Below, one piece after another: positions 50 to 8,418 of a stretch of 11,802 nucleotides of DNA. Position 1 is the first letter of the stretch; every line of letters starts with the position of its first letter. Below the pieces are notes generated by a model. It ran no database searches. It was given only the letters and a program-made list of their open reading frames with translations, and was not told the DNA's origin. Source of the DNA: a virus; UHGV virus genome UHGV-0166849; one strand, written 5' to 3'. Both the position numbers and the translations under genes were made by a program.

Positions 50-2995
50 TTAGTGCTTCCCTTCTATTAAGTCTAACCTAGCTTTTATCTTATCCATTTC
101 TCTGCGCTGCCATGCTGCCTCGATATAGAATAAGAGATCAGGTCTGACCCCCCATCTAGATCCTGCTGGCGTTATTTCAACGCGCTCAATGATGTCTTCT
201 ATTACCATCACTGGATTATCATCCTCATCAACAATGATGCTCCCGTCATTATCAGTCAGCGGCATTTCCCTTTGGCCAGTAATGACGTCATCATATACTG
301 CGGGATAATCGTCATAGCAAAGAAAGGCATAGCGGCATGTTGTGCTTTCTTCTTCCATGAGTCCGTGAGAAATAAGAACATCACGAAGTTGCTGCGCGAT
401 TACACCATGATGTATCCTCGCCCCTTCTTCCCCCTTTATAGCGACAGCGTTCAGCCATTTATAAGCGATATACCTGACGTCACCCCAGGCATCCAGCAAT
501 GCTTCGTCAGGAGAGACCGGCTCTGTCTTTAATGTTCCGTCACTGGTAACCACAGGATTGGAGCCAAGATAAACTATCGAGAACCTGTTTCCCGGACCAC
601 CAAGAGCATTTACATTATCAAGATAAGGTTTAACATCTCCGTTCTCAAAAAGATGTTCGAGTGCGTTATATACCGCGCGACGTGGAGTACTGCTTCTGGA
701 ACCATGCAACGTTATCATTGCACCATCTGCTGAAGACGTTGTTTCACCGCCGCTAACGATTAATCTCTGAGCGGTAACATCATCAGACGGTACTTTCTTC
801 GCAATAATGGCGTAATTACCCTCAAGTTTGACTTCCGCGCGAACTTGTCCTGATGTACCTGCATGGACAGTCAGTGACTGGACGGCAACATCATCTGTGA
901 AATCAACGGGTACAGGAACCGTCCTCACGCCTGACGTCGACATAAAAGTAGGAAGCGTTCTGTTAGGAGTGGCTCCGTAGACAAAATCCCTTGAAACAAA
1001 TTCTTCCTGTTTAATTTTCACCCTGAAACAATACAAATCAGCCGGGTGACCATCGTGAACATAAGGATATTTTCTGTTGTTATCCCCTATGCTCCATGGG
1101 TTTAGAAAATCTTCCCCACCGAAAATGTAGTACAGCCAGTTGTCTTTGATACAAACTGAACCAACACCAACCGCAGAGTTAACTATTCCGCCCTGATAAA
1201 TCTGATCAGTAACATTAACCCACTCTACATTATCCAGACTCCACTCATTGACGTTAACTCTGGTCATAAATGTTCTTGGATAATTTCCTGCATAACGGTT
1301 ATCAGGTTCTCCTCCTTCCCACTCACCAAATGCGCGCTCACTGCCAAAAATAACCAGCTCATCGCCAACTTTGGCAAAAGGAAGGTTTGAGTGATGAACA
1401 TTATTTGGGAAGCGAAGAGAATTCCATGATGTACCTAAATCAGAGCTTCTGTGCAATGAACTACCGGGTTGAGTACTTAATGTCCCCCTGGTCGTCAGAT
1501 ACAGAATGCCATCATAATATTTTACACATGGCTCAGATGCATTCGCCTCATATTCTGCAGGTATGCGTCTGCGAACAAAGCTACCAGGAGAACCGAAAGC
1601 ATCAGAGAAATAGAGTATCCCAAGCTCGCGTGGACCAATATCACCATTATGGTAGCCAACAGCAAAACTGTTATCGCTAATCGTCGCAAAACTGTGAATC
1701 TCAGTAACAGGAGTGCTTCCGTCAACAAAAGAAGGAATAGTTCCAAGACTGGTTTTTCTCCATGGTGACGAGTGAAATGATGTGCCAAAACTCCAGTATC
1801 TACCCTCGTTATTCTGATCCACATCCTGGGTATTTTGCGTCGTAACTGTAAAGGTATTTTTATCAATAACAGTAGTCACCGTCATATTCCCGGTAACATC
1901 TGTAACACCAGAGTTTGAGAAGTTGACAAAATCACCAGCAAATAATCCGTGATCAGTAATGCGAATATAAGCGACTTGCTGATTTGCTGCTTTCGTTATA
2001 CCACCATAAACGCGAAGGCTGCGACTCATTGGGCGATCCCACAACTCTGCAACCTGCAGTTTATTTCCTCTCACGGTCCGCGTCTCAATTACAGCAAAAA
2101 GGCGATTTCTGACAACCCCCATACTCATGCAGTGATAGTTAACTGTGGGATAGTTTTCATGTAAATCTGTAAGCCATTCCGGCGTTGTCCAGGTCTTCCC
2201 GTCATCTCCTGAGCGAACCCATGCAACATGGAGGTTATTTACACCATGGCGGTCTCCAGCCATAAAAGGCGCATAGATGACATTGTCATATACAAACGTT
2301 TTATCCTGCGTCCAGGCGTTGTACCACGGTGTATCTGTAATTTTAAATAACTCTCCCTGGATAAAATCTTCAGAAGCATAAAAAAGAGGCTGACCCGGTA
2401 TTCTCTCAAATAAAAAACGAGCATTTTTAAATCGACTGACATCTGGAAGAGTTGATACTTTAAAAGTAAGCCCTCGCCCATCTATCTTTTCACCACCTGT
2501 TGCAACAGAAAGTAATTCTGATAGAGCTGATGTATCATCATGAACACCATCACCAATAGCCCCCCAACCTCTTACATCATAACTGTCTCTCCATCTTGCT
2601 ATCTGAAGTTTTGGGTATTTATTCGCTCCATCTGGGTCTTCTAATTGCCGCCGTAACTGATCAGGATCATACTTCAGCACATTAGGAAAATAAAACTGCT
2701 GTGAACCATATGCATCGTACACAGCCATAGAGTGACCTTGCACAGTTACGAACTTGGCAATCTGTCCGTTATATACCGGATATCCAGCAGCGTTAATGAT
2801 GATTGGTTGCGAAACAGGAACGTGAGAGCCGTCTTCGTTCTCCACATAAGCCTGAATCTGGTTTTCAGGATTTACCGGGTCAGTGTCAATTTTACCGATA
2901 TAAATTTTGCCATTGGCTACAGCTTTAAAAGAACGCGCCATAGTGAAGAGTTGCGAAGGCATGCTGACCACAACATTTGCGGTGATATCTGTCAT
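50..2995 (-). CDS. Tailspike protein (981 aa): P22 gp9-type head-binding N-domain + sialidase-like domain with Asp-boxes + C-terminal intramolecular chaperone-like domain; probable endo-N-acetylneuraminidase (endosialidase)
   Basis: Full-length ORF in track. N-terminus [11 protein letters not shown]...[22 protein letters not shown]...ENEDGSHV...NVLKYDPDQ closely matches my memory of the P22 tailspike head-binding domain. Two Asp-box motifs are read directly: SGDDGKTW (aa 262-269, nt ~2189-2212) and SSDLGTSW (aa 517-524, nt ~1424-1447). The C-terminal ~160 aa (motifs [25 protein letters not shown]) resemble endosialidase/tail-fibre C-terminal chaperone domains. SD GGAG lies 8 nt upstream of the ATG at 2995. 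Confidence 0.85.
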
Positions 2996-3095: not shown

Positions 3096-4019
3096 TCAGT
3101 AGTTATGTACTGAAGGAGGTAATTCTTTGTTCTTAAGTCTTATCCATGCTGAAAGGTTTGTTGGTCCGTCTGGCTCATTAATATCAACATCTCGTGTATG
3201 GTTGATTAAAACATCTCTCGCCATTCCGATAACATACGAGAACTCATAACCGCAGTCATGACATCTGCCGGAATAGTTCGATTGAATTTGTTTCAGCGCC
3301 GGATACAGTTCGCGGAATAATGCCTGTGAGCGGTTGGCATAATCCCATAGCCATACAAGGCTGTTTGCTTCTTTTGCAGAAAGCTCGTTGGTTTTCTTCT
3401 CTTGTTTGCCAATGAACTCACCTTCAAGTGGAACTCGAGCTGCAAGTGATAGTGCTTCGGTAAACTGCTCCTCACTGATTTCTTTGTACGAACATCCAAA
3501 ATGGGATTTCAGTGACGACCACATGGTGATCATCGCCTTAGCCCGTTTTTCTTTTGGCAGAGACTGACCGCGACTCATGACGAGTTGTTTAATGGCTTCC
3601 TGCTGTTCAGTGGTGATTTTACCCGGCAACGCCTTTTTAGCTTTGCGTGGGTTAACTACATAGCCTTTAGTCCAGTACTCGTAGAGCACATCGTCACACT
3701 CTTCCTGATACTGGATTACCTTGTCGCGGATTTCAGGGCGGACTTTGTTTGGCTGAATGCTTGAAAGCCAAGCCGCAAACTTACGAAAGGCAAGGCATAT
3801 CATTAACTGTTTACCGCCAGCAGAAGGTATTTCGATTTCCGAAATACCTTTGACAAATCTCTGTTTTAATTTAACAAATTGAGCAGCCCAAACCATACCC
3901 ATGCCTTCTACAACGGGTTTCATAGGAACGTAAGGTTCATTGTTAATGCTGACCAAAAAGAGATTTGTTCCGTGGAATGGAACGTTGATTGTATGTTCTG
4001 CAATTGCTACACTCGTCAT
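3096..4019 (-). CDS. ant: Antirepressor Ant (307 aa), AntA/Bro-N-like N-terminal domain
   Basis: ORF in track. Sits downstream of arc and upstream of the tailspike, as in P22 immI. N-terminal region (..VPFHGTNLFLV...PMKPVVEGMGMVWAAQ..KL) looks like phage antirepressor N-domains. SD AGGA ~8 nt upstream of the ATG at 4019. Confidence 0.75.
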   Translation of the reverse strand: MTSVAIAEHTINVPFHGTNLFLVSINNEPYVPMKPVVEGMGMVWAAQFVKLKQRFVKGISEIEIPSAGGKQLMICLAFRKFAAWLSSIQPNKVRPEIRDKVIQYQEECDDVLYEYWTKGYVVNPRKAKKALPGKITTEQQEAIKQLVMSRGQSLPKEKRAKAMITMWSSLKSHFGCSYKEISEEQFTEALSLAARVPLEGEFIGKQEKKTNELSAKEANSLVWLWDYANRSQALFRELYPALKQIQSNYSGRCHDCGYEFSYVIGMARDVLINHTRDVDINEPDGPTNLSAWIRLKNKELPPSVHNY

Positions 4020-4090
4020 GTCGTTAATTCCTATGCGTGGTTTTACGATACCGAAGCCCTGACTGTTCCCGCAGTTGGGGCTTCACTGTT
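4020..4090 (+). ncRNA. Candidate sar-like antisense RNA (~70 nt) complementary to the ant RBS and start region
   Basis: Plus-strand promoter-like hexamers inside the 5' end of ant: TTGATT (3985-3990), 17-bp spacer, TACACT (4008-4013), placing a start near 4020. Downstream is an imperfect hairpin GAAGCCC...GGGCTTC (about 4051-4081) followed by TTTTT (4085-4089). This matches the known P22 arrangement of sar RNA opposite the ant RBS. Prediction from sequence only. Confidence 0.3.
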
Positions 4091-4304
4091 TTTGTAAGTC
4101 ACTGTAGCTATAAAGCCACTGACCACTCATTTTTGATTTGATTGACTCTACTGAATCACGGCAAGGAATGATTCCACCTGACATCATTCTGATCTCCGTA
4201 AATTCACCACTCCTTATCGATTCAATGCCATCAATGTTAACTAAAGATTTACCTCTACCAAGTGCATTCTCATAGCCAATCTCATCAACCTCAATAAACT
4301 TCAT
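4083..4304 (-). CDS. Hypothetical protein (73 aa) located between arc and ant
   Basis: ORF in track. Its ATG overlaps the arc stop codon (ATGA at 4301-4304, minus strand), which suggests translational coupling. SD-like GAGGGGA upstream. No recognisable motif. As I recall P22 immI, there is no gene between arc and ant. Confidence 0.45.
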   Translation of the reverse strand: MKFIEVDEIGYENALGRGKSLVNIDGIESIRSGEFTEIRMMSGGIIPCRDSVESIKSKMSGQWLYSYSDLQKQ

Positions 4305-4459
4305 ACCGTTATCCCCTCTCTCTTCAGGCTGTCCAACACTCGCTTGTAAATCTCAGAGTTAACAGATCGCCCGTTCTCTTCAGCTACCTTGCGCACCAAA
4401 TCCAATACTTCTTTAGGCCACCGCAAATTGAACTGCGGCATTTTTCTTGCACCTTGCAT
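4301..4459 (-). CDS. arc: Arc transcriptional repressor (52 aa, ribbon-helix-helix)
   Basis: Not in the ORF track (below its size cutoff). Manual translation of the minus strand gives MQGARKMPQFNLRWPKEVLDLVRKVAEENGRSVNSEIYKRVLDSLKREGITV, near-identical in its first 40 residues to P22 Arc as I recall it (MKGMSKMPQFNLRWPREVLDLVRKVAEENGRSVNSEIYQRV...). SD AGGGGA upstream of the ATG at 4459. Confidence 0.85.
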   Translation of the reverse strand: MQGARKMPQFNLRWPKEVLDLVRKVAEENGRSVNSEIYKRVLDSLKREGITV

Positions 4460-4481: not shown

Positions 4482-4508
4482 CGTACTACTATTGAAAGCG
4501 TACTACTA
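4482..4508. repeat. Two copies of a 10-bp direct repeat CGTACTACTA (4482-4491 and 4499-4508) flanking TTGAAAG; candidate operator for Arc and/or Mnt
   Basis: Read directly from the sequence. The repeats overlap the predicted P_ant -10 and transcription start region and flank the P_mnt -35. The TAGTAG core on the opposite strand is reminiscent of the P22 arc operator half-sites. Confidence 0.4.
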
Positions 4509-4520
4509 CCGTCCTAGCAT
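4492..4520 (+). promoter_or_regulatory. Candidate P_mnt promoter, overlapping back-to-back with P_ant
   Basis: On the plus strand: -35 TTGAAA (4492-4497), 17-bp spacer, -10 TAGCAT (4515-4520). Followed by SD AAGGAG (4533-4538) and the GTG start of mnt at 4545. Confidence 0.4.
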
Positions 4521-4544: not shown

Positions 4545-4787
4545 GTGGCTAGAAATGATCCGCAATTCAACGTAAGAATGCCAGATGAGATAAAACAGCA
4601 ACTTACGCATATTGCTGCAACAAATCGTCGCTCTATCAATGCTGAAATTATTGCCGCTATCCAATTGTGGATAAAGATACATAAAGAGCAGGTAATACCT
4701 TCAAGTAGTCAGCAACTGACCAAGTCAGAGAAAGAGGCTCTTGATGTGACTATTGATGTTCTACAACGTGTAAGGGATGGGAAATGA
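4545..4787 (+). CDS. mnt: Mnt repressor (80 aa, ribbon-helix-helix, Arc/Mnt family)
   Basis: ORF in track with GTG start. N-terminus MARNDPQFNVRMP...RRSINAEI matches P22 Mnt as I recall it (MARDDPHFNFRMP...GRSMNSEL). Divergent from arc, with a strong SD AAGGAG 6 nt upstream. Confidence 0.85.
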   Translation: MARNDPQFNVRMPDEIKQQLTHIAATNRRSINAEIIAAIQLWIKIHKEQVIPSSSQQLTKSEKEALDVTIDVLQRVRDGK

Positions 4788-5056
4788 AACCAACGAACAA
4801 AGAAATTTTCGAGCAAATAAAAGTACTTCCTTTCACTATTGAGCTTGCAAAGAGATATGAAGCTTATTATCCGTTTACCGAAGAGTCGATACGGATAGAG
4901 ACATATGATGAGTTTGGTCAGTGCTCTATCTGGCTTGGCTTTGAAGACCAATTTGCTATACGTGATGCTTTTGGAAATTGGAGAATGGCTACAGCTGAAG
5001 AATGTATTGATCTCAGAGGTGGCAACCTTCCAGGTTCAATGACATTAGTTAATTAA
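4784..5056 (+). CDS. Hypothetical acidic protein (90 aa), translationally coupled to mnt
   Basis: ORF in track. Its ATG overlaps the mnt stop (ATGA at 4784-4787). Net acidic (15 D+E versus 9 K+R). No recognisable motif. Confidence 0.55.
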   Translation: MKPTNKEIFEQIKVLPFTIELAKRYEAYYPFTEESIRIETYDEFGQCSIWLGFEDQFAIRDAFGNWRMATAEECIDLRGGNLPGSMTLVN

Positions 5057-5080
5057 CGGCGTACATGGCAGGTATGTAAA

Positions 5081-5266
5081 ATGAATAATAAACCAATGTC
5101 TAACGAAGAGTTGCAGCGCGAGTTAAAGAAACTTCATAAACTGGTATCACTTATCTACTCCAAGTTGCCACCAGATGCTCGACAAGCTGTTTTTGATGAA
5201 CTAACAAGAAGCGGAGATAGGGATGATCTGGATACTGCTTCTCGTATCAATAGCTACCGTTTTTAA
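5081..5266 (+). CDS. Hypothetical protein (61 aa)
   Basis: ORF in track. Weak SD (AGGT) 7 nt upstream. Its last 20 nt overlap a convergent minus-strand small ORF. Coding status uncertain. Confidence 0.35.
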   Translation: MNNKPMSNEELQRELKKLHKLVSLIYSKLPPDARQAVFDELTRSGDRDDLDTASRINSYRF

Positions 5267-5426
5267 TAGCCTCCAGAGTCGAATCGTAACGACTGCGCAT
5301 TGATTTTGCTGATTTCTCAAGCTCTTCTGCTTGATGCTTCAGTGATTCAAGATGAAGCTCTCCAAGATGGCACTTCATCACTTTGATGGTGCGTTCAAGG
5401 TTTTCCACACGTTCTTCTATGGTCAT
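5247..5426 (-). CDS. Hypothetical protein (59 aa), helical and charged; not in the ORF track
   Basis: Manual translation gives MTIEERVENLERTIKVMKCHLGELHLESLKHQAEELEKSAKSMRSRYDSTLEAIKNGSY. Strong SD AAGGA 6 nt upstream of the ATG at 5426. No obvious promoter between it and the upstream terminator, so expression is uncertain. Confidence 0.35.
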   Translation of the reverse strand: MTIEERVENLERTIKVMKCHLGELHLESLKHQAEELEKSAKSMRSRYDSTLEAIKNGSY

Positions 5427-5458
5427 GGTATTTCCTTAATCTTTAAAGTAGAGAAGAT

Positions 5459-5490
5459 AAAAAAACCCACCTGACGGTGGGTTAATTTTT
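5459..5490. terminator. Bidirectional rho-independent terminator
   Basis: A-run (5459-5465), perfect 8-bp stem AACCCACC/GGTGGGTT with loop TGAC (5464-5483), then AATTTTT (5484-5490). The A-run on one side and T-run on the other allow termination in both directions. Confidence 0.65.
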
Positions 5491-5508
5491 GCATTTACCT
5501 GGGCCATA

Positions 5509-5537
5509 TTGACTACTCATAAAATGAGATCAATATT
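5509..5537 (+). promoter_or_regulatory. Candidate sigma70 promoter for the small gene at 5574, with an inverted repeat in the spacer
   Basis: -35 TTGACT (5509-5514), 17-bp spacer, -10 AATATT (5532-5537). The spacer contains the inverted repeat CTCAT-AAAA-TGAG (5517-5529), a possible operator. Confidence 0.35.
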
Positions 5538-5573
5538 TAATCGCCCAATAACGGGTGTATGTTGAGGTATATC

Positions 5574-5753
5574 ATGGCGAAAAAACCAGGTGAAAACACA
5601 GGAAAAAACGGCGGAATATACCAAGAAGTTGGCCCACGCGGCGGTAAGAAAGACAATTTTGCAACCGTCAAGGACAACGAAAGGCTTCCACCAACAACAA
5701 AGCCAGGTCATGGCTGGGTATTGGATAAGCGAACTCCAGACAGCAAAAAGTAA
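5574..5753 (+). CDS. Hypothetical small basic protein (59 aa; alternative start at 5559 gives 64 aa)
   Basis: ORF in track. SD GAGG (5564-5567) 6 nt upstream of the ATG at 5574. Gly/Lys/Pro-rich sequence MAKKPGENTGKNGGIYQEVGPRGGKK...LPPTTKPGHGWVLD. I have a vague sense this resembles a conserved small-protein family but cannot name it. Confidence 0.55.
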   Translation: MAKKPGENTGKNGGIYQEVGPRGGKKDNFATVKDNERLPPTTKPGHGWVLDKRTPDSKK

Positions 5754-5766
5754 TACTCAAGCCGGG

Positions 5767-6132
5767 TCACTCCGGCTTTTTGATATGTCGCTCGCAGAAC
5801 TCAACAAGCCTGCTCATTAAGTAGCAGTAAGTCTCATTGGCTCTTCCTGGTTCAACATCAACACCGACCCTTGAGCAGATATCGAATGCCATGTGAGCGC
5901 ACTCATGGGCAATAGTAGATAGTTTGCCATTGAACACGCCTATCACATGCAAAACACCATTCTCGCTGCTCATTGTATGAGACGCTCCGTTGGCGTCCGA
6001 GTCATGCACGTCAACGCCAAGTTTTTGATGCAGGCGTTGCCATTCTGGAAAGTCTCTACAAAACACAATTGTACCGCTCTCAAAGAGCGGAACGAGCATC
6101 TTTGGTACGTTTCCAATGTTAACTTTTTTCAT
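5767..6132 (-). CDS. Hypothetical HExxH-motif protein (121 aa); candidate mini zinc-metallopeptidase
   Basis: ORF in track starts at a TTG at 6171. I prefer the first ATG at 6132, which has SD AGGA ~5 nt upstream. Contains HECAH (aa 76-80) with Glu residues 14 and 20 aa downstream, consistent with a zincin HExxH...E arrangement. The overlapping plus-strand translation looks non-protein-like. Confidence 0.55.
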   Translation of the reverse strand: MKKVNIGNVPKMLVPLFESGTIVFCRDFPEWQRLHQKLGVDVHDSDANGASHTMSSENGVLHVIGVFNGKLSTIAHECAHMAFDICSRVGVDVEPGRANETYCYLMSRLVEFCERHIKKPE

Positions 6133-6162
6133 GGTATCCTGCTCAAAACTAAGGAGCTTGGT

Positions 6163-6552
6163 GTGAAGCAATTTCTTGCTGCTATGTTCTTATTCATATC
6201 TTTTGGGGCTACAGCAGAGTGCTGGGTCGTTGGAGATATGCGCGGAATAAGCTATTCAGAACGAAATAATTTCCATCCGGAAGAAGATGGTTTTAGTGGA
6301 ACATTCATCATTAAGACAAGCGGTGAAGATGCCAGCATCACATATTCTGGGACAGATGCGGGCGGCATGGCTTACAAAGCATTGTCTAAAAACTCCATCA
6401 TAGGAATCGGCGCGAATGGCGAAACTCAACGCGTTATCGACTCATGGGTAATACATCCTACTGGAACAGTTTTAATGTCAAAAACCATTTCTGGTTATGG
6501 GAATATGGATTCAACCAAAGCTTTTGTTGGAAAAGTAAAAAGAAAATGTTAA
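6163..6552 (+). CDS. Hypothetical secreted/periplasmic protein (129-aa precursor) with Sec signal peptide
   Basis: Start re-called to the GTG at 6163, with SD AAGGAG (6151-6156) 6 nt upstream. N-terminus MKQFLAAMFLFISFGATA|ECW has an n-h-c signal-peptide layout with an A-x-A cleavage site. The predicted mature protein has one Cys at residue 2 and one as the C-terminal residue. No lipobox. Opposite orientation to the late operon, at the position P22 uses for sieA. Confidence 0.6.
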   Translation: MKQFLAAMFLFISFGATAECWVVGDMRGISYSERNNFHPEEDGFSGTFIIKTSGEDASITYSGTDAGGMAYKALSKNSIIGIGANGETQRVIDSWVIHPTGTVLMSKTISGYGNMDSTKAFVGKVKRKC

Positions 6553-6576: not shown

Positions 6577-8418
6577 TTACTGCTGTGTTGCCTCAGTAGC
6601 AAGCAGCGGCCTGATGGCATTTGCAGCGTTACTCAACGCTCTTTCATAGGCTGGTGTTCCTGCTTTGGTGTTTGCCAGACGTAAGAGCGCATTCCTTGCT
6701 GCTTTGGACTCATACAAGCGCATCATTGCACCGAAACCAGCCTCAAGCCCCATTGATACGCCAAGAGTCGCAGTTGCGCCAATCGTCCTTATCCTGTTGG
6801 CTTGCGATTGCCCCGTCTGAGTTACTACATTTGCGGTGTCTGACCTTGCTGTTTGCTGCAGAACTTCATGAAGAGCATCAAGTTCTTTCATGTGCTTTCC
6901 AGAAAAAATAGTGTTGTAAATTTCACCGCCTGACTGAGATTTCAGCTTATTAACTTCAGTGATGAACTTGGCTGGAGAGTCACCGGCCTTTTCCGCTATT
7001 TTGCTGACGTAAGCTGCACGCATAGCATCTTTCCCTTTATCATCCAGTGCGCTCCAGATTCGTTTCACGTCAGATGGTTTTCTGCTTAATACAACGGTAT
7101 TTATAAGTTCAGGACTGGCTTCACTGCTTGCCTTGTTGAGTTTGTTAGCAATGTTTTTATTAAGCACCTTATTATAAACGTTTGCATAATCGGAATTTGC
7201 TTTAAGGTATTTTGCTGCGTCTGATGCACCGAGGTTTTTAGCAACTGCGTTACGAAGGTCTTTTGACATTGCATTCTCTACCATATTGGTAGCTGCTTTT
7301 GCCTGGTTGGGGAAGACCATAGCATCTCCCTGAACATTAGATCTAAATGCTGTTCTGTGCTGACGCAAGAGATCAAACGTAACATCCAAATCAGTTGCAG
7401 GGTTTGCTAATTCTTCACGTAGGTTACGCAAGGATGTAAGCAGGCTTTGATTGGCAGACGTCCCAAGTCGTTCCTGTCTTGCGATCGCTGTATTCAGAGC
7501 ATTCATGGTATTTGTGGTATCAACTGCGGCATTACCCATTTTATTGGTGACGTCATTGATAACAGCGCCAGCGGCATCCTTCCTCCCCCTTAACGTGGTG
7601 GTCAGAGATTTCACCACATCATCAGGGTTGTACTCACCAAAACGGTCAAAATAATTACTTACCAGCTTACTACGCGTTGCATATTGCTCCGCTCGCTTTG
7701 AGCCTGTCCCGAGCAAAGCCCCCTCGGCATCCTGAGTAAGGCCGCGAGTGAAAGCATTTTTCGGCGGGATAACATCAGATGTCATTGGTGTCACGCCCAT
7801 CGATTCTGATGTGGCAATTTTCTTCGCCACTTCTGGCGCAATATCACCTTTTATAGCCGTTATTCCACGCCCTATTCCCTTTGCTGCGGCGGAAAGAACA
7901 CCCTGAGCGGCAAGGTTAACTCCGGCATTTTTAGCTGCATTTTGTGCGAAATCGCCTTTCTGATTTGCGGCCTCTGCCAGTGATCCAATAGCCATGCTTC
8001 CTGCCGTTCCAACTCCTGGAACTAAATACCCACCAATTGTTTCACCGGCTTGTGCGTAGGGGTCTGTCGGTCTGTCTACTGGACGATAAACATCATCCAA
8101 AACCTTGGGTCCACCAAGCCCCTGACTGATTGCATTAATCAGACTTGCGCCACCCTGCAATACGTCAAATGGTATGTTTACCAGACCACGACCAGCCTGT
8201 TCTGCAATTTGCTCTGCACTTTGACCACCAGTGAGCCAATCGCCAGCTTGTTGCATCAATGATGGTTCTTCCCGTGTTGGTGCATTATTGGCCTGATTAA
8301 CTGTTTGTTGCTGAACAGCCTGACCAGCAAAATACTCATCAATGGCGGTGCCAATATCTTCGGTGCTCGTACCATCAGGAAAGGTAAATGTCTTACCGTT
8401 TGCAGTTACTTTCATCAT
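6577..8418 (-). CDS. Ejection (pilot) protein, P22 gp16-like (about 612 aa)
   Basis: ORF in track. Size and position (last gene of the gp7-gp20-gp16 series, immediately before the immI/accessory region) match P22 gene 16. Its start overlaps the gp20-like stop (ATGA). Confidence 0.8.

Follow-up and report, generated by a model that had tools for sequence, protein, structure and literature searches.

Convergent small genes orf61 and orf59 in the immI region of a P22-like prophage

Two short reading frames that converge and overlap at their 3' ends pose the question of whether both are genes, or whether one is a chance frame opposite the other, and of how two such genes would be expressed. A pair of this kind lies in the 11,802-nt stretch of virus genome UHGV-0166849 analyzed here (the window), where a sequence-only reading had described a 61-aa plus-strand frame and a 59-aa minus-strand frame, here called orf61 and orf59, with 20 nt in common. 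This geometry is confirmed from the sequence (Table 1). The minus-strand frame was indeed missing from the ORF track, as that reading had pointed out, but for a trivial reason, its 59 aa falling under a 60-aa cut-off. The reading had also supposed that at most one of the two is expressed at a time, or that they form an antisense-regulated pair; the anatomy of the genome fits non-simultaneous expression, whereas both frames are conserved and neither is spurious.

The immI setting of the pair

By its gene content, the window covers the immI or "ant moron" region of a P22-like (Lederbergvirus-type) prophage (Table 1). Homologues of the DNA-ejection gene 16 and of the tailspike gene (gene 9) flank the region of the pair, as they do in P22 immI (mnt, arc, ant, sar, sieA, orf59a; Sauer et al., 1983; Villafane et al., 2008, PMC2629481), which occupies the same place. 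The window resembles P22 immI in having arc, an mnt-type repressor, ant and the sar RNA, and in setting opposed transcription units and antisense control (sar) inside a late operon. Homologues of the mnt-type gene in related loci also match PF11423 Repressor_Mnt, and the homologue in an E. coli locus (L002) is annotated by PGAP as an Arc family DNA-binding protein. The region sits within the late operon, where polymerases initiated at P_late run through into the tailspike gene (PMC2629481; PMC8022706), and the ant moron changes rapidly and carries many unrelated cargo genes (PMC2629481).

The pair itself has no counterpart in P22. The P22 immI sequence matches the window on either side of a 672-bp insert (4788-5459), which lies between mnt and a hairpin, holds orf90, orf61 and orf59, and is absent from P22; homology returns at exactly 5460, and the segment 5460-6165, hairpin included, is 97.7% identical to P22. 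The minus-strand frame is not P22 orf59a, which is also 59 aa by coincidence. The true orf59a homologue differs from P22 at 1 of 59 residues and is a separate gene, downstream of mnt on the mnt strand; orf59 is unrelated to it and lies inside the insert. orf61 and orf59 belong among the accessory genes of the P22-like ant moron and are organised like the other opposed immI units.

Table 1. Features of the window in and around the orf61/orf59 pair
Feature	Position	Strand	Basis or remark
Tailspike	50-2995	-	PGAP name taken from the 97%-identical locus L002
ant	3096-4019	-	Pfam P22_AR_N E 8.6e-40, P22_AR_C E 1.2e-28
sar RNA	4021-4087	+	Rfam RF00262, 76.6 bits vs gathering score 43
orf73	4083-4304	-	73 aa, phrog_11805 E 4e-53
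arc	4301-4459	-	Pfam Arc E 1.8e-26
Candidate P_mnt promoter	4492-4520	+	TTGAAA-17-TAGCAT, consensus match only
mnt-type Arc/ribbon-helix-helix repressor	4545-4787	+	Pfam Arc E 3.3e-13
orf90	4784-5056	+	Between mnt and orf61, inside the insert
orf61	5081-5266	+	61-aa ATG ORF
orf59	5247-5426	-	59-aa ATG ORF
Common 3' ends of orf61 and orf59	5247-5266	both	20 nt, both stop codons included
Shine-Dalgarno AAGGA of orf59	5433-5437	-	6-nt spacer to ATG 5424-5426
Predicted bidirectional intrinsic terminator hairpin	5457-5491 (stem 5464-5483)	both	
P22 orf59a homologue	5574-5753	+	YjzC-like
Second terminator	5759-5778	+	
phrog_1365 gene	5767-6132	-	PHROG match
phrog_2651 gene	about 6202-6552	+	PHROG match
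Gene 16 homologue	6577-8418	-	69% nt identity to P22 gene 16

Further features of the region were observed alongside the pair. orf73 is an extra gene between arc and ant, which follow each other directly in P22, and the sar RNA match falls in the gap between orf73 and ant, covering the last 5 nt of orf73. Between the orf59a homologue and gene 16, the phrog_2651 and phrog_1365 genes stand in for P22 sieA; the mechanical ORFs 5947-6552 (+) and 5767-6171 (-) are too long in comparison with the genes placed by PHROG matches. A Cys/Trp-rich ORF of 64 aa runs antisense inside the orf59a homologue (5517-5711, minus strand). L002 and L005 also keep this frame open; it probably does not code but shadows the conserved gene on the plus strand. 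Within the mnt coding region, a terminator-like minus-strand hairpin (4595-4618), found at the same site in L016 and L017, could halt non-antiterminated minus-strand transcripts ahead of the Pant/Pmnt control region.

Coding evidence and diverged versions of the pair

By itself, the length of an ORF is no proof here: when the 672-nt insert was simulated with a first-order Markov model, an ORF of 59 aa or more turned up in 29% of the runs. A convergent pair whose members both reach 59 aa and overlap by 1-60 nt at their 3' ends came up in 0.3%. The real evidence is conservation. The sequence-only reading had suggested comparing each frame across homologous prophages for conservation and selection, and this comparison, made on eight distinct homologous 346-nt modules of the window's own type (type A, below), found each frame conserved. 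All eight modules align without any indel, and the two proposed frames contain no stops, as against 11-39 stops in every other frame. Variation in both genes is concentrated at third codon positions: pN/pS is 0.16 for orf61, with 13, 11 and 47 variable columns at codon positions 1, 2 and 3, and 0.24 for orf59, with 22, 14 and 45. Only 20 nt are common to both ORFs, so neither coding signal is a shadow of the other.

Protein searches returned type-A homologues of orf59 at 95-59% identity, all exactly 59 aa long, and homologues of orf61 at 98-74% identity and 61-65 aa. The orf59-like and orf61-like genes adjoin on the same contigs in Salmonella, Symbiopectobacterium and metagenomes. Both families are narrow: orf59-like proteins form 51 clusters of uniform length, in which every cluster with an organism name belongs to Enterobacterales genera, and among 1.84 billion proteins the orf61 family accounts for just three 50%-identity representatives. 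RefSeq already lists both proteins as hypothetical, orf59 through an identical entry (WP_169782767.1).

The contrary reading is that only one ORF codes, the other either having arisen by chance on the opposite strand or belonging to a non-coding RNA of its partner (3' UTR or antisense RNA). Reading frames of some 60 aa are indeed frequent by chance in DNA of 40% GC, as the simulated inserts illustrate, and in the loci L003 and L004 an orf59 homologue of 76% nucleotide identity contains in-frame stops. Each ORF nevertheless combines freedom from stops and indels with pN/pS at or below 0.24 and third-position variation across the eight distinct sequences; with 20 nt in common, neither rides on the coding constraint of the other, and orf59 adds a conserved Shine-Dalgarno sequence and a length that is uniform across its 51 clusters. 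We therefore regard a single coding frame as highly improbable. Collectively, the comparative sequence data indicate that orf61 and orf59 are genuine, conserved, protein-coding small genes.

Paired genes in the same arrangement occur in four diverged types, hosted by Salmonella, Escherichia, Serratia and Symbiopectobacterium. Type A (the window and L006-L018) combines proteins of 61 and 59 aa, with the 20-nt overlap in all eight distinct modules. Type B, found in E. coli (L002), phages Kapi1 and Emek and a Serratia locus (L025), combines proteins of 69 and 61 aa, 40% and 33% identical to orf61 and orf59 of the window, with a 26-nt overlap. Type C (L026 and L027) has proteins of 63 and 60 aa overlapping by 10 nt, together with a 56%-identical homologue of orf90. 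In type D (L022-L024), the orf59 shares 59-64% identity with that of the window and faces a 71-aa partner only 35% identical to orf61, across a 7-nt gap. Across types A-D, at 30-45% identity, the plus-strand gene ends the mnt operon and the minus-strand gene converges on it in every paired case. The close orf59 and distant partner of type D imply that partners reassort yet remain paired. Because the arrangement ranges from a 26-nt overlap to a 7-nt gap, the 20-nt overlap is not itself a conserved regulatory feature; judged by these alignments, its exact length is a feature of the lineage and no functional constant.

Pairing is common without being universal. Among 130 E. coli genomes with a type-B orf59, the partner is present in 74 and orf59 stands alone in about 56 (~40%); in L005 and L020 a ClpP-like gene takes the place of the orf61-like partner. 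An orf61-like gene never occurred without an orf59-like gene in the rows sampled, and the reverse does occur. L003 and L004, the two examined of six E. coli records that match the minus-strand ORF at 76% nucleotide identity, hold an orf59 pseudogene (4005-4181, minus strand) with in-frame stops at codon 11 and later and no plus-strand partner; these copies appear to be decaying. The genomes with orf59 alone and these pseudogenes show that the pair is neither obligatory nor essential.

The start of orf59 carries a trace of exchange between types. Window positions 5395-5459 and L005 positions 4001-4065 are nearly identical through the orf59 leader, the Shine-Dalgarno sequence and the first 17 coding nt (ATGACCATAGAAGAACG), beyond which the type-A (window) and type-B (L005, L002) proteins are ~33% identical. 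The pattern resembles a mosaic junction left by recombination within the N-terminal MTIEER codons.

Further searches outlined the reach of the pair. In the phage collection, a distant DNA search with the whole insert and a protein-level search with orf59 found no match, and relatives of orf61 (type B) came from Kapi1 and Emek alone; an orf59 profile scan of IMG/VR gave no match, and a scan of genome representatives returned matches from Symbiopectobacterium only. In the Serratia sp. locus L025, an intact type-B partner ORF (MRKNYIKSK...LNSFRVPE; about 3160-3365, minus strand) sits between the 61-aa gene and mnt and is uncalled in the assembly.

The slot adjoining orf59 in relatives holds cargo that varies locus by locus (L010 3923-4947; L012-L015 4074-4941; L022 2383-2946; L005 3233-3769). 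It includes a 188-aa gene with a YafO-family toxin, a SocA/Panacea-domain gene with a 139-147-aa gene, a KilA-N protein and, in the mnt operon, a ClpP-like protease. Judging by this cargo, toxin-antitoxin or defence-like genes seem to have a hotspot in this part of the ant moron.

Transcription signals and a model of expression

Several features tie orf61 to the mnt operon. The mnt stop codon overlaps the next start by 4 nt (ATGA), that start belonging to orf90 in the window and to the orf61 homologue in L006-L009, and the overlap of mnt and orf90 suggests translational coupling. orf61 begins 24 nt after orf90, and a terminator scan and folding found no terminator or significant structure on the plus strand before 5464. 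Given the ATGA overlap, the short spacing and the lack of an earlier terminator, orf61 closes the mnt operon, a unit that P22 expresses as a prophage (PMC2629481; PMC8022706). The candidate P_mnt site lies in the arc-mnt divergent control region, at a position corresponding to the annotated P22 Pmnt/Pant region, and is also present in L016 and L017. In L016 the plus-strand operon seems to extend past orf59 into a further plus-strand gene, terminating at 5680.

orf90, present in L010-L018 and represented in type-C loci by its 56%-identical homologue at the same place (L026 2702-2980), travels with the pair in Salmonella loci as a third conserved uncharacterised gene of the mnt operon. It has no match in Pfam, PHROGs, NCBIfam or PADLOC.

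On the minus strand, orf59 has the better ribosome-binding site, as the sequence-only reading had stated: AAGGA with a 6-nt spacing, against a weak AGG 8 nt before orf61. An AAGGA, AAGGT or AGGA motif precedes the orf59 ATG in 15/15 loci compared, whose upstream sequences are otherwise unrelated. The reading was also right to place orf59 just after a terminator, its start lying ~38 nt past a strong hairpin with an 8-bp stem (five GC pairs). The stem leads into U7 when read on the minus strand and into AAUUUUU when read on the plus strand, with folding energies of -15.8 and -14.8 kcal/mol (z -4.3 and -3.8). From its sequence, this hairpin is predicted to end the mnt-operon transcript on the plus strand and to block non-antiterminated upstream transcripts on the minus strand just before orf59. 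It adjoins orf59 in loci with differing upstream cargo: where cargo on the same strand precedes (a YafO-like toxin, Panacea genes), a hairpin terminator lies upstream of orf59, and in other loci a divergent gene starts ~25 nt away. With a terminator or a divergent start so close upstream, there is no room for a promoter of orf59's own. The absence of an obvious promoter likewise holds, with no sigma-70-like site between the hairpin and the next upstream minus-strand gene. Across the region the promoter scan gave 4 hits against 4.0 expected by chance, using a crude consensus that a weak or non-sigma-70 promoter overlapping the hairpin could escape. orf59 lies on the strand of the late operon (gene 16 to arc/ant to tailspike). 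Lacking a promoter, behind a terminator and on this strand, it is most likely translated only from late transcripts.

The overlap itself shows no significant RNA structure or terminator (folding z +0.56 and -0.77), and the region of the pair has no match to an Rfam family, the sole match in the window being sar. Since no terminator separates orf61 from orf59, each transcript would be antisense to the other gene, and antisense regulation between the two is possible.

These features suggest a model in which the two genes serve opposed programmes. Transcription from Pmnt through mnt and orf90 into orf61 would yield orf61 alongside the maintenance repressor Mnt in lysogenic cells, and the transcript would cross all of orf59 in antisense before stopping at the hairpin. 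Ordinary minus-strand transcripts would stop at the same hairpin before reaching orf59, which would be translated only from P_late transcripts that pass terminators by means of the gp23/Q-type antiterminator. orf59 would then be a late lytic gene, orf61 and orf59 would fall into opposite developmental programmes, and the antisense relation of each transcript to the opposite gene would strengthen the mutual exclusion of their expression. We infer the timing of each gene, the origin of orf59 mRNA in late read-through and any effect of antisense transcription; non-simultaneous expression is deduced from the anatomy together with the P22 literature (PMC2629481, PMC8022706). Taken as a whole, lysogenic expression of orf61 via the mnt operon and late lytic expression of orf59 via antiterminated read-through has, in our estimation, about an even chance of being correct.

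Predicted proteins, alternative readings and known systems

Structure prediction (AF2) gives orf61 as a three-helix bundle (helices 8-27, 31-43 and 47-59; pLDDT 87.7) and orf59 as a single helix over residues 3-55 (pLDDT 97.5). The heptad a and d positions of orf59 are hydrophobic in 7/7 and 8/10 cases, with a register shift near residue 25, and the model suggests a coiled-coil oligomer or a binding helix. Both proteins are 34-36% charged, with GRAVY values of -0.82 and -0.94, and neither has a transmembrane segment, the maximum 19-residue Kyte-Doolittle mean being at most 0.30.

orf61 matches phrog_16466 (E 2.7e-11; residues 4-60 against profile positions 10-66 of 69), and orf59 weakly matches phrog_7586 (E 2.5e-4; residues 1-47 of the protein, 61-position profile); both PHROGs are without functional annotation. 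The marginal orf59 match probably reflects its type-B relatives, the 61-aa proteins at the same genomic position, to which orf59 is similar in pairwise BLASTP (E 5e-8). Beyond phrog_16466, searches of Pfam, PHROGs, NCBIfam and PADLOC for known families returned only sub-threshold coiled-coil noise, and PDB fold searches with the predicted structures gave nothing informative. Our best guess is that orf61 and orf59 are small protein-binding accessory factors tied to immI/Mnt, and not enzymes, toxins or membrane proteins. A more elaborate version is a long shot: where the mnt operon ends, a lysogenic three-helix protein and a late coiled-coil protein would exclude each other through antisense coupling and act as a switch that tunes Mnt/Ant control or tailspike read-through.

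How far the two genes are coupled can be read in different ways. They may be unrelated moron genes, placed back-to-back by compact genomes and by recombination junctions at gene ends, with no regulatory or functional coupling. This would suit the rapid flux and many unrelated cargo genes of the ant moron, the differing overlap lengths of the types, the occurrence of orf59 without orf61, and the Shine-Dalgarno sequence and first 17 coding nt of orf59 common to types A and B, which resemble a recombination junction. Yet the two genes stay adjacent and in the same relative orientation at protein identities as low as 30-45% and when partners reassort, and this persistence from Salmonella/Escherichia to Serratia/Symbiopectobacterium exceeds what would be expected of unlinked high-flux cargo; we judge chance juxtaposition a minority possibility, with perhaps one chance in four. 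At the other extreme, the genes could form a functional two-component system, in which orf59 is a late coiled-coil effector and orf61 its lysogen-expressed three-helix partner or neutraliser, acting on immI control (Mnt, Arc, Ant), tailspike read-through or superinfecting relatives, with the convergent layout keeping both genes co-inherited and oppositely regulated. Co-occurrence in four diverged types whose partners swap but stay paired argues for such a system, as do the constant attachment of both genes to the mnt operon, the absence of orf61-like genes without orf59-like genes in the sampled rows (the reverse does occur), and the small, helical predicted structures, which would suit protein-protein binding. 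Against it, the type-B orf59 is alone in those 56 or so of 130 E. coli carriers, products expressed at different times would rarely meet in one cell, and PADLOC and NCBIfam showed no similarity to known defence or toxin-antitoxin proteins, so that we consider it unlikely, at roughly one chance in five.

A type I toxin-antitoxin-like or lysis-associated (XhlA-like) module is far less probable, and we give it hardly any weight. The layout is convergent and overlapping, some RefSeq records call the type-B homologue a "hemolysin XhlA family protein", and toxin-antitoxin cargo (YafO-like, Panacea) lies next door in relatives; but neither protein has a hydrophobic segment, PADLOC matches none of the window proteins, and both partners are conserved proteins rather than a protein and an RNA. 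The individual identities were rejected as well. For XhlA, Pfam gave no match with orf59 (E <=0.1) or with the 61- and 92-aa type-B forms (E <=0.05), NCBIfam gave none, and no C-terminal transmembrane segment follows the coiled coil (maximum 19-residue hydropathy -0.10). The 92-aa XhlA models (L019, Kapi1, 2667-2945; L020, 2519-2797) are the 61-aa type-B protein with a start over-extended by 31 residues; the extension reads antisense through the signal-peptide region of the neighbour Kapi1_060, upstream of the conserved start MTIEER. A type I system would have a small hydrophobic or membrane toxin and a non-coding antisense RNA as its antitoxin, whereas both proteins are charged and without a transmembrane segment, and what lies opposite is a conserved protein-coding gene under purifying selection, with no sRNA in the pair (Rfam). 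A type II system is rejected in that the genes are convergent, not co-directional, and give no significant Pfam, NCBIfam or PADLOC matches.

Among known systems, Escherichia phage Kapi1 has the same architecture, and Salmonella phage Emek likewise: an mnt-type gene leads into a 69-aa gene (Kapi1_062), on which a 61-aa gene (Kapi1_061) converges. These phages differ from the window in the type-B overlap and identities given above, and Kapi1_061 is annotated at 92 aa with a CDD XhlA motif, unlike the 59-aa window gene. The pair is not mentioned in PMC8787464. The P22 pid ORFan locus was rejected as a relative, as it sits elsewhere, between orf25 and orf80.

The proposed expression model also bears a likeness to the excludon, as the anatomy implies that transcription of the mnt operon has to run antisense over the whole of orf59 and that the strands would serve lysogenic and late programmes; in L016, orf59 seems embedded antisense within the plus-strand operon. 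Classical excludons consist of divergent genes with long 5' UTRs. The window genes are convergent, and the likeness is an analogy of mechanism, not family membership.

A literature search found no published description of the orf61/orf59 pair. Both proteins were already known as deposited hypothetical proteins, and the conserved pair beside mnt is a solid but modest result: such a layout is ordinary among the accessory genes of phages, will not surprise a specialist, and opens no new class of system. The analysis also corrects annotations, in that the 92-aa "XhlA family" calls are over-extended, the Serratia partner ORF is uncalled and orf59 is distinct from P22 orf59a. orf61 and orf59 offer two short, well-defined targets for deletion or tagging in P22-like prophages of Salmonella and E. 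coli. If the model is true, a conserved small-gene pair would be added to immI, among the best-studied phage regulatory regions, in which a late-strand gene behind a terminator would be restricted to lytic growth and its convergent neighbour would be made together with the maintenance repressor.
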